A stretch of DNA of 36,625 nt from Catajapyx aquilonaris (GCA_000934665.2 JYFJ02003895.1:1-36625), one strand, 5' to 3'. Positions 1,725 to 35,087 are shown, counted from the stretch's first letter. The notes: generated from the letters alone by a model not told the origin. Numbers and translations: made by a program.

Positions 1725-2143
1725 CCAATCGCCCCGGGGCCGCCCCTAGGCCGCCCCAGTACGTGAGACCCCCTCCAAATCCACCCAGAAGAGCCGACCT
1801 TCCCTTCGCTCCAAAGTGAGGCGAGCGGAACACACAAGATGGCCGACCTGTATCGATATATTGGCAACGATATTCACGATACATCGGTCCAGTATCGATA
1901 CATCGGATGTGACGACACCATGTGACGTCACGGTGCGTAGGGTGGGAAATAGGGTAGCCAGCATCCTGCTAGTGTTGGGGAGTGGCATGTCCAGTGTTTC
2001 CAACCCTGGCAGCCTTTTTCTCCCTCTCCCTCTTATTCGGCAGGATGGAACGGAATGGGGAGGAAGTCGCTCTGGGTTCGGCCCCGGGGTCGGCCCCTNC
2101 CCGGGGTCGGCCCCTGGTGTTGGCCCAGGGGCGGTCTGATTGG
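1725..2143. promoter_or_regulatory. CpG-rich, probably bidirectional Pol II promoter
   Basis: Two perfect DREs TATCGATA (1851-1858, 1893-1900), YY1-like CAAGATGGCCG (1835-1845), CRE TGACGTCA (1923-1930), CCAAT/ATTGG at 1725-1729 and 2139-2143, and a 22-nt pyrimidine tract at 2013-2034. By eye the + strand is A/C-rich to the left and G/T-rich to the right. A minus-strand donor G|GTGAGT lies at 1504/1503. Confidence 0.6.
2074..2133 (+). repeat. GC-rich ~12-bp tandem repeat (GGGGTCGGCCCC-like, 4-5 copies)
   Basis: Directly visible; contains an ambiguous base n at 2099. A related repeat in mirror orientation lies at 1730-1759. Confidence 0.8.
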
Positions 2144-2894
2144 TTTCATTGCAATGTTCAGGTTGTCTTTGTGTAGGTACAAGTACAGGTTAAGACTTTT
2201 GATCGAGAGTTTGTCTTGGTGTGATGTACGCCATGGTCACTCGCCACTTGTTGGTAATGAGGAATTGAACTTCATTTGTGGTTCATGTCTATGATTGAAA
2301 TTACATGTGACTCGTGCACATTTCAAGCGCACTTTGCATCTCGATTGCGGTCATGCAGAAAATTTGCTGCATCGCATGTGGATTCAGGCATTGAGAGTAC
2401 GGTATGGAGTTGGTACAGGTTACATGAAGTACTGCGGTAACTGTTGTGTTGAACTAGGAAAGTTGTGTGAGGCACCGGAACAGTTTCGCTTTATGCGCAT
2501 TTGTAACTTATCCAGTACACATGCATGCCACTATTTTAATTGCATCCAGTCTTGTCTTACACTGCAGATATAGCTATGGGTGCAAACTATGTCACAATCT
2601 CTGTCACCATTGGCCAAGGCCTGTAAGGTGCTGTGTGTGTACATCAATTAATTACATCAGGGGCACCATCCTCATACTGACAAGTGATGCAAATGCATGA
2701 GTGGTTGATGGCAGGGTGAACCAACGTAAGCATAGTTGGATGCGTCTGATTCGTGCGTTATTGCCTTACAGTTTATGCAAGAGTGTTTGTTATCTTCCAA
2801 TGTGTGTGCTCGGTGAAGCACAACTGTGGCTCTGATTTCACTTCGTCCGTATTTCTTTGTTTATTTTGTTGATGTCTGGTTCAAGTGAATCATG

Positions 2895-3113
2895 GGGCCG
2901 AATTCAGAGAGGTTGCTTAACGTAAACGCGCCCGATTAAATCCTTTAGTCATCCTCGATTAGCAAATTTAACCAACCTGCTAATACAAAGACGGCGATTA
3001 GCGCTAAACGCCCCCTAATCGCACTTTCTAGCACTTTTAAATTTGCTAATCCAGGATGACTAAAGGATTTAATCGGGCGCGTTTACGTTAAGCAACCTCT
3101 CTGAATTCGGCCG
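2895..3113. mobile_element. 219-bp palindromic MITE, possibly PIF/Harbinger-like
   Basis: 76-bp inverted arms 2896-2971 and 3037-3112 with 1 mismatch; the interior also pairs partly. ATG lies on both sides (2892-2894, 3114-3116) as a candidate 3-bp TSD. The GGGCC terminus suggests Harbinger, but the superfamily is uncertain. Confidence 0.85.
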
Positions 3114-3498
3114 ATGGTGTCTACCTTGCCAATAGAGGTTTGAGTATGGTTCTTGGAAAAGTTTGTTGTCTATTAATAAGTTGTACAAGGTACTGTAACA
3201 AATATGAGTGAAAAAAGTTGTTACTGAGTGTACAATGTAATGCAAACTGGTTGTCTACTGAAGAAAAGGTGGGCAGCCATAGTTAATGTATAACATTACA
3301 AAAACAACTAATTGGGATGGAGACAATAATAATTAACTCCACAATGCTCGCCATTCAGAAATAAAAGAGTGCTTGTCAAACTATTCTGGTCCTTCTACTT
3401 GAAAATTTCCTTGATTTTGCAAGATTTTGTACCATGAAACCTCAATATCTCTTTATCAATTCTTATTTCTTTTGCGAGTATTGACTATATTCAATACT

Positions 3499-4178
3499 TT
3501 AAATAATAGTTGAGTGGGGAAGACCCGGCCAATATGGCCTTGCACCCCTGCTGGAGCAAAGCTCCTCAAAATTCTACTGGAGTTGAGGACCAAGAATGCC
3601 AAAACCCTAAAACCAAGAACCTCCCGGGCTTAAAACTAAAATGACCAAGGAAAAGACGTCTCGAGACAGAAACCCCAAAGGAAAATCCAATAAGTGGACT
3701 GTGTCCACATGAACAAGGAACCTAACCTAGAACTAAAACCTAATAAATGATCGCAAATGCCTCCATTCAGGCCTATTTATTCAGCTCCCTCAGCAGGACA
3801 TCTACAGCCAGATATAAAGCGTTGAAGCTCTCAAAGAGGACGCCAAATACACGGCGTGGGGACGGGGGCCACCCTGCTCCACAGCGCATCGACAAACTTC
3901 TAATCCTAGAACGGGCCTCCCCCAGGCCCTGTAAACGACAATGCCATAGCATATGGTCAGGATTTTGGAGTCCACCACCACACGGACAAGCTCCCTCTCC
4001 TCTACGTATCCCAAAACGTACGAGGTAAGTCAAAAAAGGACCATGGCCTGATATAAGCCGCGCCGTATGACCATGTATAAGTGTGTCCTTGCTAATTTTG
4101 ACGCTAGGAAAATACCGAAAATACTGCTTATCACAGGATTGATTCCAGCGGGCCTGCCACTTCTCCTCCGCCACTCTG
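3499..4178 (-). mobile_element. 5'-truncated R1-clade non-LTR retrotransposon (ORF2 C-terminus plus 3' UTR)
   Basis: ORF 3773-4174 has WQARW, LISGHGPFLTYLVRF and the CCHC finger CPCGGGLQNPDHMLWHC typical of R1 ORF2 ends. A perfect 19-bp TSD ATTGACTATATTCAATACT lies at 3480-3498 and 4179-4197. Confidence 0.9.
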
Positions 4179-6529
4179 ATTGACTATATTCAATACTGTC
4201 TTGAGTGGCCCCTTTCTCTTCACTCTAACTGGATATGTTAGAAAAAAATTGTCAGATGATCGGTGGCATATGGTGGTGATGGTATAATGACATTTATTAT
4301 GTACATGGTAATTGTGAACATCCACCCATGTGACGGCCCGTCCTTCTCTGCCTTTGTCTAGTTTTATGATGGTAGTCCTCGGCAGTTATAATATTCCGTT
4401 GAAGAGGTCTGAATGTACCATTCTGCAATGCCACACTGTCAGATGCAATATCAGTGCTACTAAGGAATGAAAAAAATTAGAGCATTTTTGTAGGTTCATT
4501 TATTGTATCATTTGTTGACTCCTGCATCTAGTAAGGCTCATAACCTGTGTGTGTGTGTGACCTTTTGTGTCAGTTGGATTGGACATGAGCCGAAAGTGAT
4601 GTCTTGCAATAATATGCTTGGTGCATTTATGGCTCTCTTTTTTTGTTTGAAAATTTCTGGTTTCTCCATTGACCAAGAGAGGTATGTCAGCAGTAGCTTC
4701 AGATATTGTCAAGGTCACCCGACTCAGAAGGATCTACATTGATATAGTGGCCCTACCCTAAGTGGATGCCAGACTGTTTTGGTGTATTTTTTCCAAGTCA
4801 TATTGTGAATAATTCCAATTGTCATTAGAAGTCTTGAGTTTCTGGCAATATTGTTGGTTGGTAGAAATAGTCTGCATGAAAACATGTGGTCAGAGTGCAA
4901 TCACCTTTTATATCTCGAATCCGCCTACTCCCAAGTTGTTGACATCTTTCCTACAGAGAATTTACATTTCTTCTGTAGGCAATTTATAATGAAGACATGC
5001 TTTACTCTTCCGGGCACATGACCATTGTTGAGTCAACAACATTTCTGTCCGTACATATTTTCATTCATCGGTTGTAAACTTTTGCAGATGTCTTGCTTGA
5101 CAAGCTGCCTGTCTGATGGACACTTAGTACTTCAGATCCTGTGTCAGAGTTACGGCGACCCGACCATAAAGGCCCCGCGCCAATGTATCTCATCATCCAC
5201 AATTATTCAAAAGCTAATCAAGAACAAGAATTTACATTTACTGTCCTCACAAAAGGAACTCCAATCAAACGATTAATAGAATTTACGTTAGAGAAATTAC
5301 ATTTATATTTTAAAATGAAGCTGAGCCAAATAAGATCTGAAAAGCTGATAGTTCACAACAGTTTAATTTTAATGTACATTTAATGCAAGTTTTCGGTAAA
5401 TTTATGCACTTCAGATCCTATGTGTCTGAGGTCTTTAGCTGACATTTGTATCCTGTATATTTTTCACGCATATTAAATTGTTAGCGTCCAATTTCATGTG
5501 CATGTTATTCTTTGGAAAATTGAGGAAATGACAATAACTGCTGGAGTAGGTATGCATACCTTGAGAGTTCATGGCCTTCTCATGCTTGAACGATGTAACA
5601 CCAATCTTGCTATGTTCCCATTTTAACTATGCTGCACTTCTAGCTTCTTGCTTCTTGATATTGGGTTTCATGTCGTTTTCATTGGAGCATGATCCCTCAT
5701 TTACCTAAGTCCTAAGGTGTCACATATCATATGAATCAAGCATAGTAGATAGTGACCCTTACAATGCCTACAATACCGTGACATGAAATTCCCCAGCAAG
5801 TAACTGATTTGGCATCATTTTAATATATTTCTCTGCTCATTGCAATGCATTTTTTTTTAAATTTGTAGAGTTACATTTGCTATATACTGAGTCCTCTGTA
5901 TGGTGCAGTGTGGTGTCTTGAACTGGAGGTGTATTTGAGAAGCATTCCAAAGCTGATTTTGTAAGCATTTGTAATCACCCTGTGACATGGTCACAACCTT
6001 CTGGCTGCCTGCTCACTGAGCTCTTCCTAGGGGATTGGTTCACATCATAGCACATGTACATGTGTTTGATGTAAGATAGAAGTAAATAGCCATCAGCCGT
6101 TGCTTTTTTTTGCCACACACTAGTGGCAAATTATTTTGAAATGCTACGTATATAACTTGATCCTTCATTGGCTATTGGAAACTAGCTGTGTAAGCTGAAT
6201 TTCTCAGTGCTGGTTCATCTTTGGTGGATCACCTGCATTTAATGGCAATCACATTGCATGGGAATAGATTGTAAATATTATTACCTGGTGTATTAATCAG
6301 GTGTTATCAACAATGTGCTGTGGAATACTGGTATTACCATAACATGGTCTCTGATCAAACTGATGCACATCATTTCCCTATAATTCTGCATTCCTGCTAG
6401 GTGGTTTGGTTCATGAAACTTTCTTCTTTGATGTCCAGGCTTGATGTGACATGTGATTGATTATCTGATGGCGGTGCTAAAACAGCAGGGCTAGGAAGTT
6501 CAAATGGTGTGATGCAGCAGTTACAAGAC

Positions 6530-6780
6530 ACAATGGGATAGTCAGACATGAGTGGCTGATGTGCTGCATTCCATTGCGCCTGATATTTTCAGTATTGTAC
6601 GTATATACAGCATATGCATTGTATATTGAGACTTTTCGATTCTGCAAAATGTAATGGGCAATGATGAATTGGGCGCCACCTTTTCTCACAGCTTTGTCTT
6701 AATAGTTATCTCCGTTAGTCCGATCTACATATCTTTTAACAGCCAGGAAGCCTTAGTTGCATATTTTGGAAACTGCTTCC
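6530..6780 (-). pseudogene. Degenerate BIR (IAP-like) domain remnant, copy 1
   Basis: Manual translation gives QFPKYATKASWL (compare PxYAxxAARL) and then CICC-x15-H-x6-Y-P, with stops and frameshifts. The paralog at 12957-13190 keeps HQQLNPGCP. Confidence 0.35.
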
Positions 6781-7249
6781 CATAAGTGGTCTTGTCAGGG
6801 TCGGATCATGGCTTGCTTCTTGGTTTTGTTCTGTTGGTTATAGATTATTATTTTTTTCAGTCTGCCCCGGAACATAATTGGGCTTAATTTTCGTCACAGT
6901 ACTCAGAAAGAGCTCTCCCGGAATTGGGCATTATTGTGAGGAAATGAGATGACTGATGAAATATGTCAAAGGGGGTTGCTTGCATCCAAGGAAAGAGCTG
7001 GAGTTGCCTCAGCTGATGACCCAGAGAGTTGGCAGCCACCAGGACTTTGATCTCCCTTTGAACCTCGTGTTTTGCGTTTACTTCTCTCTTCGTCCAACTT
7101 GTGGAGCTCATACTGTAAAAATATGTCGGAATCAAGCTTCTCTCAGAATGATAGCTCGTAGTTAACACTTGTATCTTGAATGGACATTATGACACCCACA
7201 GTATATTTTGAACTAATGGACATCCGTTGAGCCTTTCATGAGTTTAGGA

Positions 7250-7420
7250 TATTCGGTGGTTCTTTAGCCTGCTACCACCACATTTTTGCGACATGGTCAA
7301 CTGAATGTCTTTCTGATATTATGAAGAAACCTAGAGGTGAGCCTGTTTGGCAAAAATACTTGCCCTCTCATGCGGTTATTTAGAATGCCAGCCCACACTT
7401 TTACTGACCACTTTGGTCTA
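7250..7420 (-). mobile_element. Tc1/mariner (Tc3-like) transposase fragment
   Basis: KWSVKVWAGILNNRMRGQVFLPNRLTS, then frameshifted KMWW*QAKEPP (compare FSVNVWAGI...GPYFLP.RLT...MWFQQDGAPPH). Confidence 0.65.
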
Positions 7421-7830
7421 GAGCCGAGCTGCAACAAAAGAAAAAGTGTAACCACTTTCAAGTCACCTCAGACATTCCAAGCATACTTTTCATATTGGAT
7501 CTTTTCAAAAATAGTTTCATGTTAAGAAATGAGGCACTTGCGTCAAAATTAGGATCATATACTGCTGTCATATATCTACCTTTTTAGTAGAAGAGTTTCT
7601 GCATTTTGGTCAGCGCTGTTATTGCCTTTTGTCTTCCTCACTGTACTTTTTTCATCTGGAGGCTTTTGAACAAGAAAATCTTCAATGTGAGGCACATGCC
7701 TCATTGTAAAAGGCAAACGTGGGTATTTTATGATGTGTATAGAATTTGAGGTGATTCCTTTTCTGCCTGTCAATCGAAAATAACAGTCAGAAGAGTTGTC
7801 TTTCGGCTCTATCACGAAGCGTGTTACGTC
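7421..7830 (-). mobile_element. Chapaev3 (CMC)-like transposase remnant, internally deleted
   Basis: EPKDNSSDCYFRLTGRKGITSNSIHIIKYPRLPFTMRHVPH (ORF 7576-7881) and EKIQYEKYAWNV*GDLKVVTLFLLLQLG match two separate conserved blocks of this transposase type. Confidence 0.7.
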
Positions 7831-7889
7831 TATGGCTAGAACCACTCGTCCATTCCGTGAGACGCGTAGCGCCGGTAGCACAAGAAATG

Positions 7890-8149
7890 TGAGAGTCCCA
7901 GTACTTGGTCACCTTTACAACCAAGGCTCCTAGCCATTCGTAATATCTCCTGCCTCTTGGATCTTCATCCTGGCCACCCCTGACACTGTCATGAGGAGGG
8001 TTGTGTGGTCGTCCTTCCTGATGAATTCTCTATCCGACCTGACGGCCACCCTCAGTCCACTGTGACCCTTGGCCATTGCCCCCATAAGGGATCAGGGCAA
8101 TTTGTTGCTTAACCGATGTGGCCACTGCCTTGATGATGATGATGATGAT
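7890..8149 (+). mobile_element. Possible LINE/SINE 3' end with (TGA)6 tail
   Basis: GC-richer segment ending in TGATGATGATGATGATGAT (8131-8149). No TSD found; the left boundary is approximate. Confidence 0.35.
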
Positions 8150-9070
8150 AATACATTTTGCCCATCGTCACATTCAGAGACGAAAAAAATACATAACAAT
8201 GAATATGATGATAATAAATGCCACAATTTTTACACCACGTTGATATTTCACCAGGCATTATCGAATGGTGTGTACGACTATACCAGTTGGAGCATTCGTG
8301 GCACTTGGACGAATGTTGAGTTACCGGGTAGACTGGTACTTCCATCGATTTACTACATTATTGCCCAGCGCCAAATGTGGTAATACATACTTCCATGTTG
8401 GTACCGTCAGATGAATCTTTCGGCCTGAAGCTTTGAAATAATTAATACCATGATGTTATTAGTTCATGTTTTTCAGAGGGCTTGCAAATCCATGAAATGA
8501 TGATTAATGACCCACATTGATTCAGATTATGGCAGTGGGCGATCTATAAAAGAAACTCAGAATAGCTTCACATGGTTCCCGGTATACTTGAACAAAATCC
8601 GTGTAGGTGAGGTAAATTCGGTTTGTCATTTTCCGAGCCTGGTGCTAGATGATGTCATCCGCCTGGACATAGGATGTAATGTCCTGCGCGTATCTTCTGA
8701 TAGCCCGATTTTTATTATCTTGACGTCATGTGCGTTATTTTGAATAAACGGAATGGGAGTAGGGGGCAAAGCACTACCCTAGATACGTAGTACAGTAAGA
8801 TCGTGTTTTATTACAGAATTGGCACTATTTTCCACAGAGGACCATAGCGAAAATGTCAGTTCCCGCCCACGTTCCGTCTAATTACGAGGTTAGACATTTT
8901 TTGTACCATGTTGATCTTCGTCTTTCGTCGCGAAAAATCTTTCATATGGTTAAACTTGTTGCTCTCAAGTTCTCACATTCGGCTAATAGTTTTTCTGAGT
9001 CAAAATTTTCTAGAAAGGTGCAGGCCTTAGAAATGATTGCTTCTGTTGATTGTTTTCAGATCAACCTCCT
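8150..9070 (-). pseudogene. Decayed OTU-like protease plus PHD-like finger
   Basis: WYKKCLTS*LDGTWAGTDIFAM (~8845-8910), a GHY motif in another frame (~8670-8690), and CHEC...WCKNCGIYYHHIHC in ORF 8109-8345. The catalytic Cys block was not seen. Confidence 0.3.
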
Positions 9071-9084
9071 TTAAACTTCTTTTC

Positions 9085-9300
9085 TTGTCTTTTGCACCTT
9101 CTTGAGTGTCTTCTAAATGCCCGTATGGCCGCCAGTAACTGGGTCACCATGGTACTGTTTTAAATTGTCAGACACAATTGAAGGGCCGACGATTTTGAAC
9201 GCATATTTAGCTTAGTCCTCGTCTAGCTCCTTCCTCGGGATAATGTACTTGACAAGTACATTATTCCTTTTGGTGGTGTAGGAGTCTATATGTCCTTGAC
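9085..9300 (-). mobile_element. Gypsy pol fragment (integrase zinc-binding region)
   Basis: LKQYHGDPVTGGHTGI*KTLKKVQK at ~9090-9165; boundaries approximate. Confidence 0.7.
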
Positions 9301-9623
9301 CCACGACTGCGCCAGATTCGTGCACCCGGAAGCCATTTTTTCCAGGTACTCACGAATAGCTGGAGTCCTCGGGTCACCCATCTGGGCTTGGACAAACCGC
9401 TCGACTTCTAAAGTGGAGCTCTCCCACTATCAATTTTGCCTTGGGGTCCGAGTCCTTTTTGGCCTTTTGGCATGTCCACCACTTCAGCATACTCCGGTTC
9501 GTCTCCCAATACAACCCTAGGAGCGGAGACTTTTCAATGGTCTGGCTGCTTACTGTGCTTTCTTCATCACATAGAGGGGTAGGGTCAGGCTTTCTATTGC
9601 TTACAGCCGTGTCAGTCATGACG

Positions 9624-10360
9624 TTGTGGAATAAGTGACAGGTAAAATAAGTTAATGTTCATCAATAAATTAACTACCTTTCAGTTAATACGGATCTTTA
9701 CGTTCAGTTAGGTTCAATCTGGTGGAAGTACAAGAATTGTGATGTCCTGAGTAGCGTTACTTTTAATGCAAGGTTGCTTGTTGAGAGGTTGCTTTCATTC
9801 CAGAACATGATTCTGTGATGCATGAGTCTTGGATTCAATGTATTACCCACAGTAGCATTTTTTATACTGTAATGTCGACATGTAATATACTAGGCTATGT
9901 AGGTGCTGCTGCTGCTGCAATATAAGGATTATTATCGTCCAAGCTATATTCATATGAAGTAATAAATATGTAAATAATACATATCATACAGAGGCATTGA
10001 ATTTATTTCAGACGTATTTTTCAAAATATACTTTGTATTACGTAAGTTATAATTTCGCAGGGTTTCATTTGAATAATAAGTACCGTGTGACACCTGAACA
10101 TAAAACTTTGCAAGAGTGGTGTAAAACACCCTTAAATTCGTGTGAGTAAATGTTCGTTTACTGACACAATAGACATCACGTGTTCCTCAACATGTTTTTA
10201 TACTTTGGGACAGTTTCCTGCGTCATGTGCAGTAGGGTCTTCATCTGAGAATTTTGGCCATTCACGAACATACATGATTTTCTTGCATCGCGGACATGTT
10301 ATATTACGACATTTCCCTATTACAGACTAATAAAATTATCACCCCCTTGTATGCAATGCT
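9624..10360. repeat. Dispersed paralogous block; second copy at ~15315-16070
   Basis: Colinear match starting TTGTGGAATAAGTGACAGGTAAAAT and including AATAAGTACCGTG...AAAACTTTGCAAGAGTGGTGTAAA. Confidence 0.9.
10201..10320 (-). pseudogene. Zinc-finger remnant, loosely BIR-like
   Basis: In-frame ITCPRCKKIMYVREWPKFSDEDPTAHDAGNCPKV (C-x2-C...W...DP..H...CP); spacing differs from canonical BIR. Confidence 0.25.
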
Positions 10361-12070
10361 ATACGCCCAAAATCATGCCACTGCACTGGACAAAAATCCA
10401 GTCGAATGCTGAAACTTGGTGTTGCTAATAGTTGCATTAAACAAGCTGGATATTCCAGGCATTGACTGAATGTTATTGTTCGTATACTGCTGGGGGATAA
10501 CACCATGTACTTTATTGCTGTGTTGAGTATGTTACAAGACTGTGGTCTCTGCTGTTATTGCTTTCAGAACCACCAAGCAAGTACGGCCTGTTTAATAGAC
10601 AACCGGAGGCGCAGGCTATTGCTCTCCAGCCCTGCGGCAAAGAGACACCCTGGATGATGCAGATCTATAGGCAGCTCCAAGTGCACTACAGGGGTAAACA
10701 TCATGAGAGGATTTTTCTGTGCCGATATTTATACACCTCATTTTACTAATTTTTGACAAGGTATTGGATCTAAACGACATGGTGTGCTTAGCACGCCGTA
10801 GGTTCATCACCTGGTAGCTTTGCAACTAGTTTGCGGGATAACGACTTGCCTCTTTTTTACACTTAAAAAGGACAGGCCGCATTTTCTTAACAAGCTTGTC
10901 CTTGACGGCAATAAAACGTGCATCTGTGACATCCCAGTAAATTATGGCGCCTGAAAATATTACAGTTTTGCGGTTAGATATCTTTCGTCATGGAGATCTG
11001 CGTTTGTTTTAACAGTTCCTTGGATGTCCCATGATAGTGTTAGAAAACACATGCTATTTTGAAGCACAATAACCGGATTGCGTATTTCCGTTCTCTACTC
11101 CATTTTGGCCTCGATTAATGTCCAACACTGTACTATAACGTGTGTCTTGCCTCTTGCACAGGTTTCTTAGCTCATCCTAATAATTTTTCTATTATTCATA
11201 TGCCCAATTGTGGCTATTAAATCAGATGGCGAGCGATACCGCTGATATAGGCCCTAATGTCTGCTCACTTATTGACTAGTCAACACCTCCAGTGTACTGT
11301 TCTGTGTGCATGAACCTGCCATGAAAATAAATATCCTTCTAGACCTGAGTGTTAAATTGAAACATTTACAATATATTTTTATTACAGTTATTTTATTTCA
11401 TTTCAAATATTTGTTTAGCCAATAAACTTAAATTTATCCCTAAACCTAACCTAACCTAATTTTGTTTCCCCTTCGAAACATTGCACTAAACTCCCAAATC
11501 AGCCCGCTGCTACCCCCATCCCTGCGATACTGTACTCACTATTTTTGTAGCAAAGCCTGGCAGGGCCACAAAACGGAGAGTACTGATGCGGTCACTCCAA
11601 CGCCTCACAGACAACTCCAACACAATAGGCAGTGGAATATATGCTTTGAGTAATCAACAATAATAAGATGCCTTTTCGGAAACACTATACTTATTGAAAG
11701 ATTATCCATATTACGCAGCTATCCCTCGGCCATGAATGCTCCTCAGTGAATGTAAATTAAACACCTGATGTAGTGTACATAATCCACGATGCAAATGCTC
11801 ATCAAACAGCTGCTGGTACTATTTCCTACCTGATAAATATTGACTGGATGACTTTGTGGGTGTAAAAAGGAAGGAAAGGGGACATAACCTGGTGGCGAGG
11901 TCTGCAACAGCGAGTGAGAAATAGTCTGCAATAGAACGAACTCAAGTCATGTGTACGTTTGAAATTGGCCTGTTAATAGTGGTACTGTACTTACCCAAGC
12001 TTTGCTAATACATCTTCCATTGGCGGACTCCAGGGACATGAAAGAGACTGGCAATGGCGCACTCGTGTTG

Positions 12071-12540
12071 TGTAGTAATTATTACATAACTGAGCACGTA
12101 ACGATCTGTATCATTGTAGGTATACCCAAAGAGTTTGCTATAATATACAGTATAATATATCTAGAGAGAGAACTCTGGGTGAAATGTGAGGCAGGCAACA
12201 ATATTACCTGAGTAAGATGACTATTGGACTAATTGTTGTCCCAGTGTTATCATTGTTGGCTGTTGTCGCAGTTGCTAGACAACTGTTAGAACAACAATAT
12301 TTACCTGAGTAAAGTTGGCGGCTGCCTCACCCTGGCTAATGGGGAAGGATAGAGAGTACTTCCTCTAGGTATATTATATATTATAGTAGAACTATAGTTG
12401 GGTATACCAAGTTTTCTAACTCGGCGTTTGACGGCATATCGCGCAGGAAGATGCCTCCTCGGCTAACTAGCTATTAGTAATAATACTTAATAATAAACAT
12501 TCTGCTCTATAGTTACGTGTTTCAATTCCAGTATGTTACA
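12071..12540 (+). mobile_element. Candidate solo LTR (~470 bp)
   Basis: TGTAG...TTACA termini, AATAAA at 12492-12497, flanks GTTG/GTTC (4-bp TSD with 1 mismatch), and an internal duplication ACAACAATAT(T)TACCTGAGTAA. Confidence 0.45.
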
Positions 12541-12574
12541 GTTCATCAGAGCATATACATGATATTACACTACA

Positions 12575-12766
12575 TTTCGCGATCTATGCATTTGTTTTGT
12601 ATTGTTGACATTTCCAACGCCACCGGTTACACCCACTCCACCATAAATAGTGCTGAGACCAACAAATGATTATTCTTTCAAGTTCTCCACTAGACATTCC
12701 TTGATGATGGAAAAGCCTCTTTCAACGTCTGCATTTCCATGGATATGTAGAATTGCATTTGCTATA
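12575..12766 (-). mobile_element. hAT-like transposase C-terminal fragment
   Basis: HGNADVERGFSIIKECLVENLKE*SFVG resembles the hAT dimerisation-domain motif (ERxFS). Confidence 0.7.
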
Positions 12767-12809
12767 CCGGGTCCTCTGGATGGTACGCTGTGATGTTTTT
12801 GATGGTTTT

Positions 12810-13196
12810 GTTTACATGAAACTGTTCTTCTTTGATGTCAAGGCACAGTGTTTGCAGCTTGCTCATGACCAGCATGATAAGAACATGTGATTGTCTGAGG
12901 GTGGTGCTAGAACAGTAGGGCTTTGAAGTGCAAATGGTGTGATGCAGTTATCAGACATAATGGGGCAGCCTGGATTGAGTTGCTGATGCATCGCATCACT
13001 CCTGGTATTTAAAGTATTGCGACACTGACCTGTAGGCTATATTTAGGCTTTCAATTATGGCTAAAAGGTAATGCGTAATAATGAGTTGGGCACCACCACA
13101 GCTTTGTCTTCAGCCATCTTCGATAGTCATATCTATACTTTATATCCAGGCCAGGAAGCCTTAGTTGCATATTTTGGAAACTGCTCTCCATAAGTA
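12810..13196 (-). pseudogene. Paralog of 6410-6790 (BIR-like remnant, copy 2)
   Basis: Shares GCCAGGAAGCCTTAGTTGCATATTTTGGAAACTGCT and CAAATGGTGTGATGCAG. Translation gives YGEQFPKYATKASW...HQQLNPGCPIM. The paralogy is certain; the BIR call is tentative. Confidence 0.45.
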
Positions 13197-21461: not shown

Positions 21462-23390
21462 TGACCCATTGCTGTTGGTTATTTATCAATGCTTCATCTG
21501 TTCCCTACTGATGAGTGATGACTTACCAGGGAATAATCCAGTACATTTTCCAATTGATGCCTGCAAGTCCGTGATCACCCACAGGATTCAACTTTAGCCG
21601 TACTGCAACATGCACCTATTTTGACACTTATTAGAACTTGCCAGTAAGTGCCCATCAACTGAAATCAATAAAATTGCTGAAAGTACTTTGTTGGGTTTCG
21701 AGTGGATTGACTATCTGGATTACTATTAATATTAATATATATTAATATATTTTAAAAGTTAATAAGATAAGTAAAAAAGTGATTGTCATTGAAATGCAAT
21801 TGTAATAATTATTGACTGTGCCCTGCACATATTACTGCTAGTAATTGAACTAGTCTCAGGAAAATAGGCACCTAGTGGGACAGGATAAGCCCGAGTGATT
21901 ATAGGAAGTCACTTGTATATCTGGTTTTATTTGCTGCTGTGGTAACAGGGAATAAGAAGAAGGGGAAGGATGAAAGGGATAGGAAGAGGGAGAGGCCACC
22001 CAAGGATATTCTCCCTGGGGTGAGGCCCCGACCAGTTCCCGGGTGGTTTGTCCCCGGAAAAAGGCCCCGAGAGGAACTGGACGGGAGCTTAAATAGACGT
22101 CCAGCCGCAATGCATGGTGGTTATAGTGCAGGTCACTCCACAAAAGGGAAGGTGGCAATTATCGGCTGGAGGGCATACAAGCGGAAAAAAGGAAATATGG
22201 CGTAACAAGGTAACGCAAGTCTGATGGGAATTGGTTTGACCGGGTCGAGGTCACACACTACGGACAAATGCTGTCACACTAGCAAGTTGCGAAAAGAAGG
22301 AAGAACAGGTGGACTAATTAACTGGGTAAATCTGACAACAGGGCTAGTAATTTCAATATATTTGATAATAAGGGCATACAAGGGAGGTAAGTAGTGGGGG
22401 AAGGAGGACCGGGTCGTCCGACTCGCCACCCTCGTCCAAGTGTGCAAGGGGCGAGCGAAAGGAATCATCCGAGTCCTCCTTTATACTGTAATACACACCG
22501 GAGGTAGTCGCAAGCCGGTCCGAAGTAGTCCATCTAAGATGAAGCACCTTGGATTCGATATGACTACTTTTTCCTCTCCGTCCTGTTAGAAGGCTGTCGT
22601 TGAATGTTTTTGAATACAGGATGGCAGAAATAGTACATTCAGTAGTCATATATAGCTCTTGGTTTCACCACGTATAATGGACCAAGTAGAAAAAAACATG
22701 CAAATATTTGAATTGGTCCTCCCCTGATGCACTTTCAATTAATTCTGCAGTATTTCACTGCTCTTGCGAGAGAATAATTTTCTAGCAGGTTTTTGAAAAT
22801 CTTGCAGGTGTCAGGTGGAAAGGAAGGCTTCCCAGACCTTAAGCTCAGCCAGTCTCAAGCTGCAACAGTCTTTAAGTTTTGTATTAGTGACATGGGTAAT
22901 GCACATTGTCGTGTGTCAAAATATTGAACTTACTTGGCACATTATTATGAACAAATGAATGGATATTTTGACTATCGGGGAAAATGCTTAGTTGCTCTCC
23001 CTGTGAATTAGCCTGTGAATCTAGCAGCTTCCAGTATATTGTATTATTATAATTATTTTAATGAATAAATGAATATTGTTCCTATGCATGTGGACGATAA
23101 TTTGCCAAGATCTGAAGTGTATATTTCCATGGTGACTCCGTTAGGTCTAAAGTGAGTGTAAATGGGTATGAAATAGGTCAAATAGGTATGAAATAGGTGC
23201 ACTGTGCCATTGCATTGGGTTATGCCATGGGTTACCAATCTTACCATCCCCTCCCTCTCTAGCTCCCCTGTACCTGGACAAACTTTCCCTTTATATGTGG
23301 AAGATGAATGGAGACAGGAGGTTGTATGATGTATTTTTTTTAGTTCCGAAGTTTCAATATACAGTGTCAAGTAACCAAACGTCTTTCTAC
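21462..23390. repeat. Segmental duplication copy A (copy B at 25434-26882)
   Basis: High-identity direct repeat starting TGACCCATTGCTGTTGG. Copy A carries an extra 403-bp solo LTR and an extra 59 bp at 22672-22730. Confidence 0.95.
21876..22278 (-). mobile_element. Solo LTR (403 bp), Gypsy-type 4-bp TSD
   Basis: TGGGACAG...CTGTCACA termini; CTAG TSD at 21872-21875 and 22279-22282; empty site CAC-CTAG-CAAG at ~25838-25848. Minus-strand TATTTAA (~22089-22095) and AATAAA (21926-21931) give the orientation. Confidence 0.9.
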
Positions 23391-23869
23391 GAAAGTCTGT
23401 GCGAAGGGTTGCTTCAAGACCAGGATAAAGTGGCCAAATGTATTTGAACCCTATGGTACATATTAATAAAATTATCACGCGGGTTGTATGCAGTGTTGCA
23501 CGTAATGAGTGTCTCAAACATGAAGCTGATGTATTATGTTGCTTGATAATTTGGTAATGTATTGGACAACCATTTAAAATGTTAACTTAATGCTTTCAAG
23601 GAACGTTATCCTTAATTCGTATTCATTTGAAGAAAGTGTGCTTTATCACGAATTTTGGACGCATGATTTGCTAACTGATTGCGGCTTTGATTTCGACGAT
23701 TTCTATTGATACTTACACGTCGCTTTCCAAGATCTGCGCTGCATTTTTTTCCAACAAGTTACAGCCCACCGGAGCACTTATACATGATACTGTATAACAA
23801 TACATATTGTCTGTCAAGTCGCGATCTGTGGATTGTGTGCACACTGGTTTTGTTTTTACGTGGTGTGCA

Positions 23870-24008
23870 CGCAAGGAACTCAAATCCAAAGAGCACGATT
23901 CAAGAGAATTTACGTTAGAGAAATTACTTTTTATATTTTAAAATGAAACGAACTGACAAATATGAGCCAAATATGTTCTGAAAAAGAGTCAAATGTACAT
24001 TTAATGCA
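23870..24008. repeat. Dispersed paralogous block; second copy at ~5250-5390
   Basis: Shared AGAATTTACGTTAGAGAAATTAC...TATATTTTAAAATGAA...ATGTACATTTAATGCAA. Confidence 0.85.
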
Positions 24009-24009
24009 A

Positions 24010-25433
24010 ATCCCGGCTGACCGGTAGCTCTGCACGAAACCAGACCTCGTCTTTGGGAAATATCTCCCCCAGTCGCAGGTGGATGTATCTGAGGAGAAGG
24101 TTCGAGACCATTGACACCTCGTCTATAATGAGCCGCTTCAGATCCCTGAAGTAGGACCGCATCACCTGCACCGCGTCTTCCGAAAGTGGCCTGTAGGCTG
24201 CTGTGGATCCGTGCTCTACGGGAAGCTGGAGGAGTTTATGGATGGTCACCCCGCCCACGTTAAATGCGGCCAGTCCGGTAGGGGCTGTCACGGCCACAAC
24301 GATGTTCTCCGACGGGAACATGTCCATTATCATGACCTTGACCGGGTGGATGAGGAAGCTCTTCCCCGTTCCTCCACAGCCGCTAACAAACATCCGGAGC
24401 GGATCTGCTGACGCCAGCTTTATGCGGACAAACACTCGAGACTGGTCGGCGTTGAGGCGCAACACCATATCCTCGAGATTGCTCGTCACGGGGTCAGGTC
24501 TCATGGCTGCTACCAAGTCCTCCATGGCTTGGACAGCTGCCGTCTCCACCTCGGCCCCCTGAGCAAACCCTTCTCCAGACTGAGCATCTGGTCCTGCCTC
24601 GTTGTTCTGCGTGGTCGCCTCCAAGTTCTCCATCAGCTCCTCCTCTGCCTCCCTGATGGCTGTCAGCTTCTCATGATAGACATGTAGAGCCTGCATCTTC
24701 GGTAGGAGTGCCGAAAATGCTGACTGGTAGGTGGAGTGGTCCTGAAGAAACTCACTCTCCACGCGCCACGGGTAGAACAGGAAGAGTATGGCGAAGTAAT
24801 ACTGCTCCCTCTCGGTGTCCTTTGAAGGGTTGAACAAGCGGTGGTTGATCAGGTGAAGCTTGCTGCGCAGCCGCACAAACCCCTTTCCCTTCATAAGTAC
24901 CACGAGTCCCTCCGTGTTCTTTGCCGACTTGACATAGTCGTGAAGTCGCATGAAATCAAAGAGGCAGAGGTTTTCCATAGACAGCGGGCGATTAGGATAG
25001 TAATCATCTACCCAGCTGTTTTCATAGATGCCTCGTGACTCCGGAATCTTCTCCCGAATGGTCTCGATGGCAGCCAATGTCTTTAAGCCCCGCGTTCGCA
25101 CGTGGGACATGTGCACGTTGACGTGTTTCACGGAGGCCGTCTTGCCGTATAGGTGGACGCCGATGAGCCGCCTCGCTGCTTCATAGGCTCCGTACTCGCG
25201 GTTTGTCAAGACGCGCATGGCAAATTTCCAGAGGCGCTTGCAAAGGGTCTCGGAGTTGGCAATGTCGTCCCAAACATCTGACAGGACGGTCTTCTCTCCC
25301 TTGGTTATATACTTAGTCACGCAGTGACAAAGGGAGTTCTGGCTGTCGGCGATATGCTGCAAATCCATGTTTGCCTCCCACAGCAGCAGAACAGTCGGAT
25401 TATAATCGTTGATGCGCTCCTCTCCACGACCCC
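24010..25433 (-). mobile_element. Helentron/Helitron2-type RepHel internal fragment (end of Rep, linker, N-half of PIF1 helicase)
   Basis: Open frame 24001-25461: INDYNPTVLLLWEANMDLQ...KYITKGE, LFYPWR, Walker A SGCGGTGKS, APTGLAAFNVGGVTIH, Walker B LIIDEVSMV. It is truncated at both ends and GC-richer than its flanks. Confidence 0.92.
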
Positions 25434-25757
25434 TGACCCATTGCTGTTGGTTATTTATCAATGCTTCATCTGTTCCCTACTGATGAGTGATGACTTACAA
25501 GGGAATAATCCAGTACATTTTCCAATTGATGCTTGCAATGTCCGTGATCACCCACAATATTCAACTTTAGCCGTACTGCAACATGCACCCATTTTGACAC
25601 TTATTAGAGCTTGCCAGTATGTTGCCCATCAACTGAAATCACTGAAATCGATAAAATTGCTGAAAGTACTTTGTTGGGTTTAGAGTGGATTGACTATCTG
25701 TATTAATATTAATATATATTAATGTATTTTAAAAGTTAATAAGTAAAAAGGTGATTG

Positions 25758-26357
25758 TCATTGAAATGCAATTGGAAATATTGACTGTGCCCTGCACATA
25801 TTACTGCTAGTAACTGGACTTGTTTCAGGAAAATAGACACCTAGCAAGTTGCGAAAAGAAGGAAGAACAGGTGGACTAATTAACTGGGTAAATCTGACAA
25901 CAGGGCTAGTAATTTCAATATATTTGGTGATAAGGTCATACAAGGGAGGTAGTAGTGGGGGAAGGAGGACCTGGTCGTCCGACTCGCCACTCTCGTCCAA
26001 GTGTTCAAGGGGCGAGCGAAAGGTATCATCCGAGTCCTCCTTTATACTGTAATACACACCGGAGGTAGTCGCAAGGCGGTCTGAAGTAGTCCATCTAAGA
26101 TGAAGCACCTTGGATTCGATATGACTACTTTTTCCTCTCCGTCCTGTTAGAAGGCTGTCGTTGAATGTTTTTGAATACAGGATGGCAGAAATAGTACATT
26201 CAGTCGTCATAGCTCTTGGTTTCACCACACTTTCAATTAATTCTGCAGTATTCCACTGCTCTTTGCGAGATAATAATTTTCTAGCAGGTTTTTGAAAATC
26301 TTGCAGGTGTCCGGTGGAAAGGAAGGCTTCCCAGACCTTAAGCTCTGGCAGTTTCAA
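25758..26357 (-). CDS. 199-aa open frame of unknown function in duplication copy B (probable exon remnant)
   Basis: Open in copy B, disrupted in copy A. More distant homologous DNA lies at ~17780-18000 and ~14360-14460. No domain recognised. Confidence 0.3.
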   Translation of the reverse strand: MKLPELKVWEAFLSTGHLQDFQKPARKLLSRKEQWNTAELIESVVKPRAMTTECTISAILYSKTFNDSLLTGRRGKSSHIESKVLHLRWTTSDRLATTSGVYYSIKEDSDDTFRSPLEHLDESGESDDQVLLPPLLPPLYDLITKYIEITSPVVRFTQLISPPVLPSFRNLLGVYFPETSPVTSSNMCRAQSIFPIAFQ

Positions 26358-28419
26358 GCTGCAACAGTCTTAAGTTTTGTATTAGTGACATGGGTAATGC
26401 ACATTGTCGTGTGGCAAAATATTGAACTTACTTGGCACATTATTATGAACAAATTAATGGATATTTTGACTATCGGGGAAAATGCTTAGTTGCTCTCCCT
26501 GTGAATTGGCCTGTGAATCTAGCAGCTTCCAGTATATTGTATTATTATAATAATTTTAATGAATAAATGAATATTGTTCCTATGCATGTGGACGATAATT
26601 TGCCAAGATCTGAAGTGTATATTTCCATGGTAACTCCGTTAGGTCTAAAGTGAGTGTAAATGGGTATGAAATAGATGCACTGTGCCATTGCATTGGGTTA
26701 TACCATGGGTTACCAATCTTACCATCCCCTCCCTCTCTAGCTCCCCTGTACCTGGACAAACTTTCCCTTTATATGTGGAAGATGAATGGAGACAGGAGGT
26801 TGTATGATGTATTTTTTTAGTTCCGAAGTTTCAATCAAAGAGATTCAATATACAGTGTGAAGTAACTAAACGTCTTTCTACGAGCTGGGATAGTTTGATC
26901 AAATATTTTTCTAACTACGTCTGTTTGAGTAATAAATCTCCTCCACCGTGGAACTCTATGCCGGCGGGCTATTGGCAGGGTACTCAAGACGGAAATGTCA
27001 TTTTCGAGTTGGGTGGGCAGAGAAGAAATCTCTTCCAGGACAGTTATTTCTTGTGACTGCTTCATTTTAGTGGAAACTGTTTACTGGTAACATAATGTAT
27101 GATAACGAAGTGAATCGTAGTTTTCTTCCATATCTGCGTGTGTATTCAGTTTCACAAAATTCCACATGTGAAATTCATTCGCCTTGCTCCGATTAAGGGA
27201 ACACTAAATATCACCAAAAACACTTCATTAAATTCATGCTGTTGCATAGATTTTATAAAAATGATTGTTTTAATAAGTTGTGCCGATTCAAAACAATCTA
27301 CCACACGTGCGGGGCATTTCCACTTACAATATCTTAATCATCTTGTATCAGGAAAATATTGTTTTTGTATGTTTGCCCCATGCCTCTGCTTCCCATTTAC
27401 CTCGATACACATTTGTCATATTGTGATCTAATCACCTTCTATGTCATGGATCATATCTCTTGCGTGATTGTGCAGTTAAAAATAATATGTCGGGTGAGTA
27501 GCGCCTATCCACAGGAGGCAATATGATATAATAATTATATAATGCGTATCCATACTTATGTTGTAAGTAGGGAGCGATTTCCATTTTTGACTTTCCAGTC
27601 CCATATTGTTATGTATGGATGGCATTTTCCAGAATGCTCCTGTTTGTTTGTGTCGAGACATGTTTCCACTTCTTAGTCCTCGGGCTTTTCTTCTTGGTCA
27701 AATGGCTGTTCCTCGCCTTCTGTTTCTTTCTGATGTGGTCTTTCATTGCTTTCAGGTCAGGTTGCCCTTAATGTGACTTGAGGTCATGGTACGCATTGAA
27801 TCTATTTGGAATGAGTGCGTCATCTTTCTCCCGCCGAGATTTCCATTTACGCGATAGAAAAACATGTTCTTCACATCAGATCAGCGAAAGTCATGTAGGT
27901 ATCAGGTGCCACTGAAGGTTTTTTAATATTAACACAATGGAAAGCCAGTCTTAAGATTTGTAAATGTGGCGTGAATAATGTCAGTTATCATATGACAAAT
28001 AGTATATTAATGTTAATTGGCATATACTTGTGTGTGAGTGAATACTTGTGGGCTGTAGTTTACTGTCTACTGAGCACAATTTTACGATTAAAATTGGCAC
28101 AAGGTTACTAACTAGTGACAAATCCAATTTTGTTGAATCATGTTTGAAGCATCAGTACGGATGATTATGATGAATGCGGATGAAGTCAGTGTCGCGATGT
28201 ACGGCATCATGTTCACATTCACAACCTCCTCCATCACTGAAGCAAGGCGCTTCGCATTTTTGCAATAGTCATATTAATGGGACAACAATTTCATTTTATA
28301 GCCTTACATTATTTTGAACAAATGAAATGGCTCTATTTATACTATCAGGATCTTTTTGGTGGTTCCATACACCTACCTGTGAGCCTACTGTGTGAAAGGA
28401 CCCATATCAAAGGGAATGT

Positions 28420-29500: not shown

Positions 29501-29539
29501 AATTGAATTATGAAATTGCAAGTAATTAACAATCCTTGC

Positions 29540-30323: not shown

Positions 30324-31465
30324 TAGACCAGGAGTGCATGATCTTGAGAAAAATAATACTTATGGAGCTGAAAATTGGCAGGCAGGTCCCAAGATGGTCC
30401 TGCACAACTTAATAAATGTCGCCAAAGTTCCATGTGTTGTATGCGAGAAAGACGTCGTCATTTTTGCCGCATTTGTGTCGTAGGCCCAAATGCGACAGTA
30501 GAAATGTGACTCATAGGTTGAAATATTCAACAAAATCCTATTTATTTATTGCTTTTTTGCATGCAGGATGGGAGTAATAAGTGCTAACGCTACATCAGCT
30601 TTGTGCAGTTATGTATTATTTCTGCGTTGAGACCTATAGAGACAGAAAGGAAGGCAAGGTTAAACATTCCTTTATTAAAGCAAAGAGTACTGTCTTATTA
30701 GACTTACTCCGGATCGTCTGCTTCCTCCATTTCATAACCTGCAGCGCCATTTAAGCAGCTTCTGCCCTTGCAGTAGATGCACATCATGGAGCAAGCGAGA
30801 CCCGTAGTCTTGCAGGAGCATCGTGATCCGCAGTCGTTCTTGCTACCGCAAGATATCATATGCAGGAGCTCGTCTGGGGCAGGTGACAAATGAGTCGTGA
30901 CAGGAACCAACATATCACCACATTTCTTCCATCCCCAAGCCTCAGGAGAGATAGAATTTCCAATCCATTCTTGGACCTGGAAGAAAAGATGACATAACTA
31001 TTACGTGAGATGAGCGACGCGCAAAATTATGCCCCAAGTATTGAAATGGAAATACGCCTACCTGCAGGTAAGTTCTCAATGAATGCTGTTCACATGCGGC
31101 ACTTGTTGGTGGAAGCGTCGCCAGATCAAAAGCTGCAGTGACAGCTTGCCTGGCAAGAGTGCGAGCATGTATTCTGTCGCGGAGTTCGTGTAATAAGCTG
31201 GAGAAGACATCACTGCTGTACAGATTCATCAGGAATTTCTCTCCGGCAGCAAGTATATCTGCTTTCGCCGCTGACGAATTGTTGAAAACAGCGACCAAGT
31301 CCAGCATCTCAGGCTTCTCCAGAAGCTTGAAGGCCTTCTTCTTGCCCTTGCCGAAAATAGCCGACGTGGTGTCACACCCTGTGACGGCATGGGCAAACAA
31401 CAAGCAGTCCTTCGTGGAGCCCAACTGTTCCTGGATGTCTCTGACTGTGAACAATTTTTTTTCGG
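30324..31465 (-). mobile_element. AcademX-type transposon 3' part (XPG-like nuclease plus Cys-rich finger, one intron, putative terminus)
   Basis: FAHAVTGCDTTSAIFGKGK...LPPTSAACEQHSLRTYLQ; an 85-bp GT-AG intron at 30977-31061 splices in frame to VQEWIG...WGW...APDELLHMISCGSKNDCGSRCSCKTTGLACSMMCIYC (stop at 30704). The TAG-starting terminus at 30324 is tentative. Confidence 0.8.
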
Positions 31466-32627
31466 CCCAGACCTACGGAGAAATTCCCACTTGGTGGCAA
31501 GTAAACCACCACCAGAGTGAACTCCCGGCCCACGCCAGCCACCCGGAAGACCCCGGTGTAGCGAGTGCACAGGGCTGTCTCCCGTGCAATCCGGAGACCG
31601 GAATGGAAGACCTCCAACGCCACCTTCGAACTGCCGGTGGCCCAAGTGCGGGCGGCCAGCCTGCTCCGTAGGGAGAGCACGTAGGGCTCCAGAAAGCACA
31701 GGATGTCCAGTCTCGTGTCCACCGCCCAATCCATGGCACGACCCGTAGCCTCCTGCCCCCCACCGGCGTTGTACTGCCCGATTCGGAGAGGTCTGACCTT
31801 AGCAGCCATCTCCGTTCCTCCTCCGGATCACCGCCATCCTCTGCTGCCAAACGGGGCACCGGGCCGCCCACACCGAGTGACCACTAGGCCATCCCTGCGC
31901 CTTACAGTGGACGCAGCCCACCACCGTCGACCGACACGTCTGGGCCTCGTGTCCGTTCTCCCCGCATCGACCACATCGCGGTTCACGCTGACATTTGCGG
32001 GGTCCCTGAGCCGAATGACCATAGGCACAACACCTGAAGCATCTGTCGCTTCGAACAATCTCCTCCACGATGCAGTCGTTGAGGTCGACCTGCAGTCGCC
32101 CCTCCTTCATCAGGTCCGGGTAGAACCCCGCCGACACCTCCAAGGTCCAATTTTCACGTGTAGGATTTTGGCATCCCCGGTTCGTTATCACCTTAACGTG
32201 GTCCCGAACAGACCGGCCCTGAAAGAGCTCGCTGTTGTCCTCTCCGATAATGTCCAACAGCTGCTCTGCCGTGAAACCCACGCGCACCCCAGTCAATCGG
32301 ACCCTCGGAGGAGCCCTCGTAACCGTCCTCGACATCGCCACACCCGGCTGATGTTGAAATGCAGCCACCACCGCCTCCCTCTGCTGCGGGGTCCTGCATG
32401 CGATGCGCACACGCTTCCCCACCTTGGTCACAACCCGAAAGCCACCCTTCCGCACCGCCTCAGGGACGACCAATTTGATCGTCTGGGAAATCTCAGGATC
32501 TGGCACCTCCTCCACGAAATCGACCACCGCAGGGAACGACGGCTCCGCCCGCGGCAGGGACGGAAAGGCCCGAGCCACGTCGGCGAAGGACGGTCCCACC
32601 CCCGGACCGGACACCTGGCGCTCCAAG
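31466..32627 (-). mobile_element. R1-clade LINE: ORF1 with three zinc knuckles plus start of ORF2 AP endonuclease
   Basis: ORF1 (to 31799) contains CFRCCAYGH...C, CGRCGENGHEAQTC and CVHC...GH...CP. ORF2 from 31809 reads LRIGQYN...LDILCFLEPY...VVVYLPPS. It is cut by the LTR at 32628 and by the Academ junction. Confidence 0.9.
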
Positions 32628-33709
32628 TGTGCTGATAGACCCCTAGGAGCCCTTGGGCGGCCCTCTTGAGACCCCCTTGAGTTAGGCACGTCCTGAGTCT
32701 AACAGAATTACTTATTGACTGGTTACTATAACAATGCCAGTTGACCTGTCTCAGGTGAGCCAACTGGCTAACAATACATCTCCCTTTTCTGGTTTGTTAT
32801 CAAATTATACATAAACATTATACGCCGTCTTGTCCTGGCAGCTGGCCGTCTTTAGTGGACTCGGGAGGCTGTCCAGCTCCGTCACTTCCATACGGAAGTA
32901 GATGGCGCCGGTTGACTCGTACAATGGAGCCGTTGTCGAGTTCACACCAATAAGACCGTGGGAACTCCGTCTTCTGCTTCACTATCGCTGGAGTCCTCGC
33001 ATCTGACACCCATACTCTGGTTCCGTCTTCCAGCACCGGTAGCTCCTTCACGCGGTGACGGCGGTCATGGCTTGCCTTCTGCTTCTCCCTCCATCCAATT
33101 GGAGCCTTTCCGACAGAGATTTGTCCCGCAATCCAACAACAATACGGTCACAAATAAGTTCATCCCTCAATCCTGCAAACTCACAATGTTCTGCCAACCC
33201 GTGTAGTGCCGTGACAAAGCCTTCCACATCTTCCCCTGGCTGCTGGACTCTGGTATTAAATTTTGCACGCTCGTACGTTCGATTCTTCTTGATTACAAAA
33301 TGTTTTTCAAAGCACAACAACACATTGTCGTAGTTGCTCATGGCAACGTCATCCAAATGGAACGTAATACGTAGTTCCTGCCTGAGGCCCCATCGAGTAT
33401 ATGAGGGCACTCACCTGCTCGGCCGCTGGCTTCCTGTCAAGTTTCGACAGTGTTCTGTACCTCTGGAATCTCATCTTCCACATAGGCCATCCTTCTGGAC
33501 GTTGGAAGTCCAGAGGTTCTGGAGGTCGAAATCCCAAGCTTGCCATATCCAAACTTGTGCAATAGTTGACTCTCCAACTACGGTAGGGGTAGAACTTCTC
33601 ACCCGGCTGCCACCATGTGCTGATAGACCCCTAGGAGCACTTGGGCGGCCCTCTTGAGACCCCCTTGAGTTAGGCACGTACTGAGTCTAACCCTGGTCTA
33701 ACAGAATTA
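32628..33709 (-). mobile_element. Internally deleted Mag-clade Gypsy LTR retrotransposon
   Basis: 3' LTR 32628-32778 (151 bp, TG...CA), PPT AGAAAAGGGAGA 32779-32790, truncated 5' LTR 33616-33709, PBS TGGTGGCAGC 33606-33615 (tRNA-Leu-like). gag WPMWKMRF...YERAKFNTRVQQPGE...DRIVVG is joined at ~33092 to the pol C-terminus HDRRHRVKELP...PRSY...RVNRRHL. Confidence 0.92.

Positions 33710-35086: not shown

Positions 35087-35087
<1 letters not shown>

Follow-up and report, generated by a model that had tools for sequence, protein, structure and literature searches.

The stretch of Catajapyx aquilonaris DNA considered here, JYFJ02003895.1 (36,625 bases, referred to throughout as the window), contains an unusually uniform mosaic of transposable elements (TEs). 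From ~1.9 to 33.7 kb, truncated and abutting pieces of many unrelated TE families, together with an F-box gene remnant, all have their sense strands on the minus strand. The favoured interpretation is that this span is a one-strand (unistrand) source locus of PIWI-interacting RNAs (piRNAs). It is held tentatively, with a probability of about 0.4, and is preferred because the one-orientation run of unrelated truncated classes has no detected exception and starts at a cluster of sequence motifs. Antisense capture under selection in a promoter-driven, one-strand piRNA locus yields such a layout (PMC10643416). The predicted mechanism is as follows. (i) RNA polymerase II would start within or close to the TATCGATA/TGACGTCA cluster (~1.85-1.93 kb), from where it would read the plus strand for ~28-32 kb. 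(ii) The resulting long transcript would be antisense to each captured element. (iii) This transcript would be cut into piRNAs, which would guide PIWI proteins to sense transposon RNAs. (iv) Selection would retain antisense insertions and purge sense ones. We infer transcription of the span, its direction and the processing of the product into piRNAs from the anatomy of the DNA; the reading as a whole is plausible, specific and testable, and it is unproven.

The orientation of coding remnants provides the first line of evidence. All stop-to-stop open reading frames (ORFs) of at least 40 amino acids (aa) were scanned against Pfam (n=477; 240 plus, 237 minus), and 323 TE proteins (120 Helitron, 53 gag/pol and 150 relatives of the ORF at 30945-31472) were used as tblastn queries against both strands. 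Three Pfam matches identify TE or host domains (PIF1, F-box-like and RT_RNaseH_2), and all three are minus; the 14 remaining matches, at E 0.0019-0.047 (6 plus, 8 minus), belong to unrelated families and are treated as noise. Significant tblastn matches are found only on the minus strand, at 24007-25530, at 30707-31496 and, at E<=0.01, at 32803-33564 and 31838-32062; the plus strand gives none with the same queries and thresholds. At E<=5, chance-level matches are scattered over both strands. The sole dense extra cluster at that level is a set of 32 weak gag-pol matches, or high-scoring segment pairs (HSPs), on minus 20825-21332 (best E 0.016), and the densest plus-strand cluster holds 10 HSPs with a best E of 0.42. 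Equal searches of the two strands thus yield six database-supported coding remnants, six of them minus and none plus: a Helitron Rep/helicase piece, a long terminal repeat (LTR) element with gag and an integrase tail, a Gypsy-type reverse transcriptase (RT)/RNase H piece, a non-LTR ORF1 followed by the start of an R1-type endonuclease, the C-terminus of a large protein family, and the F-box remnant. Five further candidates, two of them language-model leads and three recognized by eye, are likewise minus. The two-sided probability of such agreement is ~0.03 for 6/6 and ~0.001 for 11/11 with the leads included. A reading by eye of plus-strand ORFs of at least 45 aa, which is not a formal test, recognized no transposon motif. 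Reading stops through as X on the minus strand of positions 1-9300 gives no Pfam family.

The span holds at least five element classes, all truncated: Helitron, two LTR-element remnants, non-LTR and an unclassified large TE protein. The initial annotation had described the protein-coding TE fragments as all minus, and most of them as short, without termini and abutting. The strand holds for every database-supported remnant, and truncation is seen in the TE pieces: the Helitron piece corresponds to aa 661-1146 of 1826, the piece at 30707-31496 is the last ~230 aa of its protein, and one LTR element has no RT.

Repeats within the span agree in direction as well. A sensitive self-comparison pairs distant parts of the span in 19 HSPs, and 19/19 are direct. 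In the first self-comparison the interspersed pairs are all direct, and the inverted rows are three self-palindromes only. The largest family (~3-4.5 kb) is represented by the pair 5861-10361 / 12743-16068, in which 5/5 HSPs are direct and collinear. An element of ~310 bp has copies at 16.0 and 23.4 kb (91% identity), another family forms a pair at 19.9-20.4 and 28.4-28.9 kb, and there are several short families besides. A non-coding element termed repeat X occurs as two long copies (A and B) and an older partial copy at 17.7-18.5 kb. Copies A and B coincide at both termini and have unrelated flanks; they are therefore separate insertions, and a single block duplication is rejected for them. 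Repeat X was also considered as the upstream part of the Helitron and rejected, as Helitron homology begins exactly where X stops. Grouped conservatively, the repeat pairs represent about eight independent same-orientation outcomes (p ~0.004). The p-values for coding remnants and repeat pairs, taken together, make chance unlikely: the same-strand bias is real.

Base composition extends this picture to the unannotated bulk of the span. Over 2201-29500 the plus strand has T in excess of A (S_TA +7.0%) and G in excess of C (S_GC +3.0%), in 24/28 and 20/28 of the 1-kb bins, respectively, and the skew is unchanged when coding remnants are removed. Summed along the window, the (T-A)+(G-C) skew falls to its lowest value at 1920, within the motif cluster, and peaks at 29629. 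The left flank (1.7 kb) is skewed in the opposite sense, with A>T and C>G on the plus strand at about -12% each. The shift at 1920 looks like the jump seen at a transcription start. The TA skew is more simply viewed as a by-product of the A-rich sense strands of TEs lying on the minus strand, and it was set aside as independent evidence of transcription for that reason. The motif cluster itself is real: the window's only two TATCGATA sites both lie in 1851-1930, against 0.24 expected, and one of its three TGACGTCA sites accompanies them.

Several observations weigh against a piRNA source. A major cluster would be expected to be larger than the coherent span. The motifs at its left edge are palindromic and the cluster has a CpG observed/expected ratio of 0.75, which is not that of a strong CpG island; for these reasons the cluster demonstrates neither promoter activity nor direction, and of the plus-facing promoter proposed initially the motif cluster stands and the direction does not. 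Transcription-associated skew in Drosophila introns amounts to 0.8% overall and 2.3-2.6% in the top germline-expressed genes (PMC5786239), and the +7% TA skew found here is several-fold above these values. Runs of at least six A number 22 on the plus and 48 on the minus strand, an asymmetry that base composition explains and that was set aside as evidence of transcription. Counts of poly(A) hexamers reveal no depletion on the plus strand (AATAAA 22 plus/23 minus; ATTAAA 14/20), where base composition leads one to expect fewer (~0.6:1 by our own arithmetic), so that selection against termination signals is not in evidence. The splice-site-like GTRAGT is present 18 times on plus and 17 times on minus. 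Some repeat pairs are roughly collinear, with offsets of ~8.1-8.5 kb (8465, 8474, 8151 and 8511); since these offsets are similar, ancient local duplication may have made the number of independent events look too high. Finally, only five of the 12 TE fragments named in the initial annotation are verified.

The same orientation would be expected if the span were a long intron, or the body of a long non-coding RNA (lncRNA), of a plus-strand unit, from which sense insertions carrying splice or termination signals are purged and which has no piRNA function. It is established that long interspersed nuclear elements (LINEs) and LTR elements lie preferentially antisense in introns (PMC3088655), introns are far commoner than piRNA clusters, and a skew domain beginning at the motif cluster fits any germline-transcribed unit. 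As in TE-rich introns, elements here are antisense to the presumed plus transcript and T exceeds A on the presumed sense strand. PMC3088655 describes a partial intronic bias, for LINEs and LTR elements, whereas here the bias is complete, far stronger, and reaches further element types: a Helitron, a gene remnant and short non-coding repeats are coherent with no exception detected. Neither the flanks nor the span yielded a plus-strand exon or domain, and the 240 plus-strand ORFs gave no Pfam match beyond noise in a scan that short or lineage-specific exons would escape. The undepleted poly(A) hexamers also speak against purging of this kind. An intron or lncRNA body is accordingly judged unlikely, while deserving more weight than any of the explanations that follow. 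One of these is a neutral transposon graveyard, in which coherence reflects chance together with old local duplications that copied blocks directly. Tandem duplication always yields direct copies, the similar offsets hint that a block at ~14-20 kb was long ago duplicated onto ~22-29 kb, and the finding was drawn from a very large scan, in which rare chance patterns will surface. Against this, the self-comparison found no similarity in DNA between the collinear blocks, the repeat X copies share termini and not flanks, and the six supported remnants come from unrelated families at separate sites, with the repeat pairs as additional evidence. A neutral origin is considered improbable.

Orientation could also have been fixed once, if the span, or much of it, were the cargo of a single large composite mobile element or amplified unit, for example through Helitron capture, and had been moved or copied as a block. 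Helitrons capture gene fragments, and a Helitron-type fragment does lie inside the span with an F-box host-gene fragment nearby. The Helitron piece is itself internal and without ends, self-comparison reveals no long terminal or inverted repeats bracketing the span, and repeat-pair identities from 63% to 96% indicate accumulation over a long time; a composite element is therefore very improbable. An equally slight chance is assigned to a variant of the piRNA interpretation, in which the motif cluster at ~1.9 kb would be the divergent promoter of a bidirectional piRNA locus, and the right arm would supply antisense piRNAs against at least five TE classes and an F-box gene family. It is entertained because the sign of the skew flips at the cluster, from -12% for both measures on the left to +7% and +3% on the right. 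Were it correct, a transposon trap would also regulate host genes.

The preferred reading, a one-strand piRNA locus, can be compared with known systems. As in Drosophila flamenco, nearly all fragments of the span face the same way, downstream of a discrete candidate start; they are truncated and abutting, and the predicted product is antisense to them. In flam-like clusters Gypsy-family LTR elements drive both enrichment and strand bias, and the flam-syntenic span is 227-1085 kb (PMC10643416). Flamenco is marked further by a Ci/Inr promoter, expression in somatic follicle cells and 24-31-nt, 1U-biased piRNAs from one strand. Here the coherent span seen is ~28-32 kb, with a left edge at 1920 and a less certain right edge, as the window ends at 36.6 kb. 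Its content is mixed (Helitron, non-LTR, LTR and unclassified). Detected Gypsy-type sequence amounts to ~1.3 kb of 31.7 kb (~4%) in two LTR remnants (20780-21332 and 32803-33564), a figure obtained without a species repeat library, so that degraded LTR sequence may have escaped it. The predictor FlaHMM works on Gypsy coverage, taken strand by strand in bins of 5-10 kb (PMC11400887), and by our arithmetic only two of ~6 bins of 5 kb would hold Gypsy-type sequence here. Of the description 'flamenco-like', the strong strand bias (6/6 remnants, 19/19 HSPs) is upheld and Gypsy enrichment is not. With ~4% Gypsy-type content, the locus is not flam-like by the published Drosophila definition; the coherent span seen, ~30 kb, also lies below 227-1085 kb. 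A generic unistrand cluster of tens of kilobases and mixed content would be the closer analogy. Unistrand germline clusters of mosquitoes, of other arthropods and of the vertebrate pachytene type have a long single-stranded precursor, a canonical promoter and mixed repeats, usually over tens of kilobases. Such clusters are defined by mapped piRNAs, and many are without a strict TE orientation bias; the present locus, in contrast, is known from orientation alone.

The individual remnants differ in state of preservation. Within the Helitron fragment, a 491-aa ORF (24004-25476) contains a PIF1 helicase (Pfam E 2.7e-16), and a homology search finds 192 relatives for it at E<=0.001, the best at 2e-147. 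Helitron_like_N and PIF1 are present in these proteins, in many cases together with OTU or UCH. On an 1826-aa relative with PF14214 and PF05970, the fragment covers aa 661-1146. Judged by this homology, the fragment belongs to a protein in which Rep (Helitron_like_N) is followed by a PIF1-type helicase, the arrangement by which a Helitron is recognized. The Helentron subtype, to which the initial annotation assigned the fragment, is defined by a C-terminal apurinic-type endonuclease domain. The C-terminal part is missing from the fragment, and the 120 listed relatives show OTU (PF02338) or UCH (PF00443) and no endonuclease family. The LTR element that the initial annotation assigned to Mag includes an ORF (33048-33410) with 53 relatives (best E 2e-32), many of which are gag-pol proteins with RVT_1, RNase H and rve/Integrase_H2C2. 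Searched by tblastn with gag-pol proteins, the element gives a best E of 8e-40, and its integrase tail matches aa ~1186-1307 of polyproteins of ~1300 aa at E down to 3e-9. The direct repeats that bracket it exceed the size of a target-site duplication; the 76-bp unit forms the first 24 codons of the ORF1 frame and of the frame upstream of gag. The Gypsy-type fragment is more decayed. RT_RNaseH_2 is matched in 20786-20920 at E 7.8e-4, which improves to 1.3e-5 when stops are read through as X (25.6 bits, below the Pfam cutoff of 29.8).

The non-LTR piece retains the 5' part of its element, and the remainder of ORF2, including the RT part, is absent from it. Its knuckle region (minus 31838-32062) is matched by tblastn at E 0.002. 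The ORF at 31375-31827 has four PDB matches at E<=1, and 4/4 are R1-clade ORF2/endonuclease chains, matched weakly (E 0.068-0.45 over ~40 aa). Exactly antisense to ORF1 runs a plus-strand open frame of 316 aa (31685-32632), in the window's richest part (up to 62% G+C). It has no Pfam match and is probably a composition-driven open frame. The adjacent piece, called Academ in the initial annotation, belongs to a very large family. Its ORF (30945-31472) has 2244 representatives at E<=0.001, counted at 50% identity (best 9e-48), and corresponds to the C-terminus of proteins of 1050-1500 aa. The 150 listed relatives produce 247 tblastn HSPs, all of them minus. Seven long relatives among these 150 were scanned: six are without a Pfam family and one has a weak DUF6589. 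On the evidence of these relatives, this large repeated family is an under-described eukaryotic transposon protein family. The F-box remnant, which had been annotated as host-derived, is genuine, with F-box-like in the ORF at 18961-19311 (Pfam E 1.2e-12) and 20 F-box proteins of solved structure in the PDB (best E 5e-5). Its two palindromes, 18942-19017 (76 bases) and 19015-19056 (42 bases), are 100% self-complementary, so that an identical peptide is read from either strand. They represent either a genuine inverted micro-duplication or an assembly artefact.

Other named elements fared less well. The proposed second R1 copy is an ORF with no match at E<=0.001 among 343 candidate longer proteins and no Pfam family; its Cys/His motif, seen by eye, presumably resembles those of non-LTR ORF2 C-termini. 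For Tc3, the candidate at 7300-7467 has no Pfam or PDB match, and a three-frame minus read-through of 7000-7800 is empty. For hAT, the candidate is likewise without a Pfam match and the corresponding read-through of 12400-13200 is empty. Neither Chapaev3 nor a solo LTR could be located in the window. No ORF of at least 40 aa gives a BIR match, and the nine PDB matches of the IAP-like candidate (10201-10326) include none; piRNAs against an IAP-like gene family are thus unsupported. Two of the names survive as leads. The Ginger-like ORF resembles unnamed eukaryotic clusters at a language-model feature score of 0.94; at rank 14 (0.85) comes DUF5641, which is an integrase C-terminal family. The I/Nimb ORF scores 0.92 to unnamed eukaryotic clusters, with a PRE_C2HC cluster at rank 30 (0.84). 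An end of the bias at 33710 is not demonstrated, as no coding remnant is found on either strand past 33691.

The window is repeat-rich animal DNA of ~42% G+C with a single N (2099). Its coding remnants are related to eukaryotic transposon proteins found in arthropods, sponges, fish and a bivalve, and no long intact gene is present in its 36,625 bases. Searches across the window return no Rfam match and no tRNA gene, and hence no oriented RNA-derived repeats. CpG is moderately depleted (observed/expected 0.71), with TpG/CpA in excess. At 2083-2115, ~150 bases downstream of that cluster of motifs, a G+C-rich unit of 17 bases occurs twice, with the N between the copies. The left flank (1-1700) contains several minus-strand open frames of 95-147 aa without Pfam matches; either a divergent transcript or an A-rich element in plus orientation could account for it. 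In the right flank (33710-36625) there are tandem arrays at 34404-34664, 34931-35024 and 36050-36279, an (ACA)13 run at 35087-35124 and plus-strand open frames without database match.

Table 1. Features of the window, in order of position.
Feature	Position	Strand	Remarks
Motif cluster, candidate promoter/regulatory element	1851-1930	.	TATCGATA at 1851 and 1893, TGACGTCA at 1923
Palindromic element resembling a miniature inverted-repeat transposable element, long inverted arms	2896-3112	.	self-inverted match of 226 columns, 84% identity; no orientation
136-aa ORF with Cys/His motif seen by eye (initially R1)	3776-4183	-	unverified candidate
Repeat family, copy 1	5861-10361	.	direct to 12743-16068, 72-88% identity in blocks
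hAT-like C-terminal motif, by eye only	12673-12837	-	adjoins repeat copy 12743-16068; unverified
Repeat family, copy 2	12743-16068	.	direct to 5861-10361
115-aa ORF like integrase C-terminal region (initially Ginger-like)	16195-16539	-	lead only
118-aa ORF like non-LTR ORF1 (initially I/Nimb)	17321-17674	-	lead only
F-box(-LRR) gene remnant	18834-19311	-	disrupted by two perfect palindromes
Gypsy-type RT thumb/RNase H fragment	20780-21332	-	stops and frameshifts
Repeat X, copy A, ~1.45-kb non-coding element	21462-23392	.	two internal insertions; direct to copy B, 90-96%
Helitron-type Rep/helicase internal fragment	24007-25530	-	truncated on both sides; PIF1, tblastn
Repeat X, copy B	25434-26883	.	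meets Helitron fragment exactly at 25434
C-terminal ~230 aa of large eukaryotic protein family (initially Academ)	30707-31496	-	one frameshift near 30988
Non-LTR retrotransposon, 5' part	31675-32698	-	299-aa ORF1 with three Cys/His knuckles, first ~40 aa of R1-type endonuclease
76-bp direct-repeat pair	32628-32703 and 33616-33691	.	97% identity; brackets LTR-element remnant
Internally deleted LTR retroelement (initially Mag)	32803-33564	-	gag joined to integrase C-terminus, no RT

The significance of the locus depends on which explanation holds. As an intron or neutral graveyard, the span would be ordinary repeat-rich DNA whose elements happen to be oriented with unusual consistency. If small RNAs confirm the piRNA reading, the anatomy of the DNA would have sufficed to recognize a one-strand piRNA locus in an animal other than the Drosophila models. 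Mixed content would set this locus apart from Gypsy-only loci of the flamenco type. Confirmation would also bear on the widening of sequence-only predictors past Gypsy content, and on whether selection for antisense capture is general to promoter-driven clusters.

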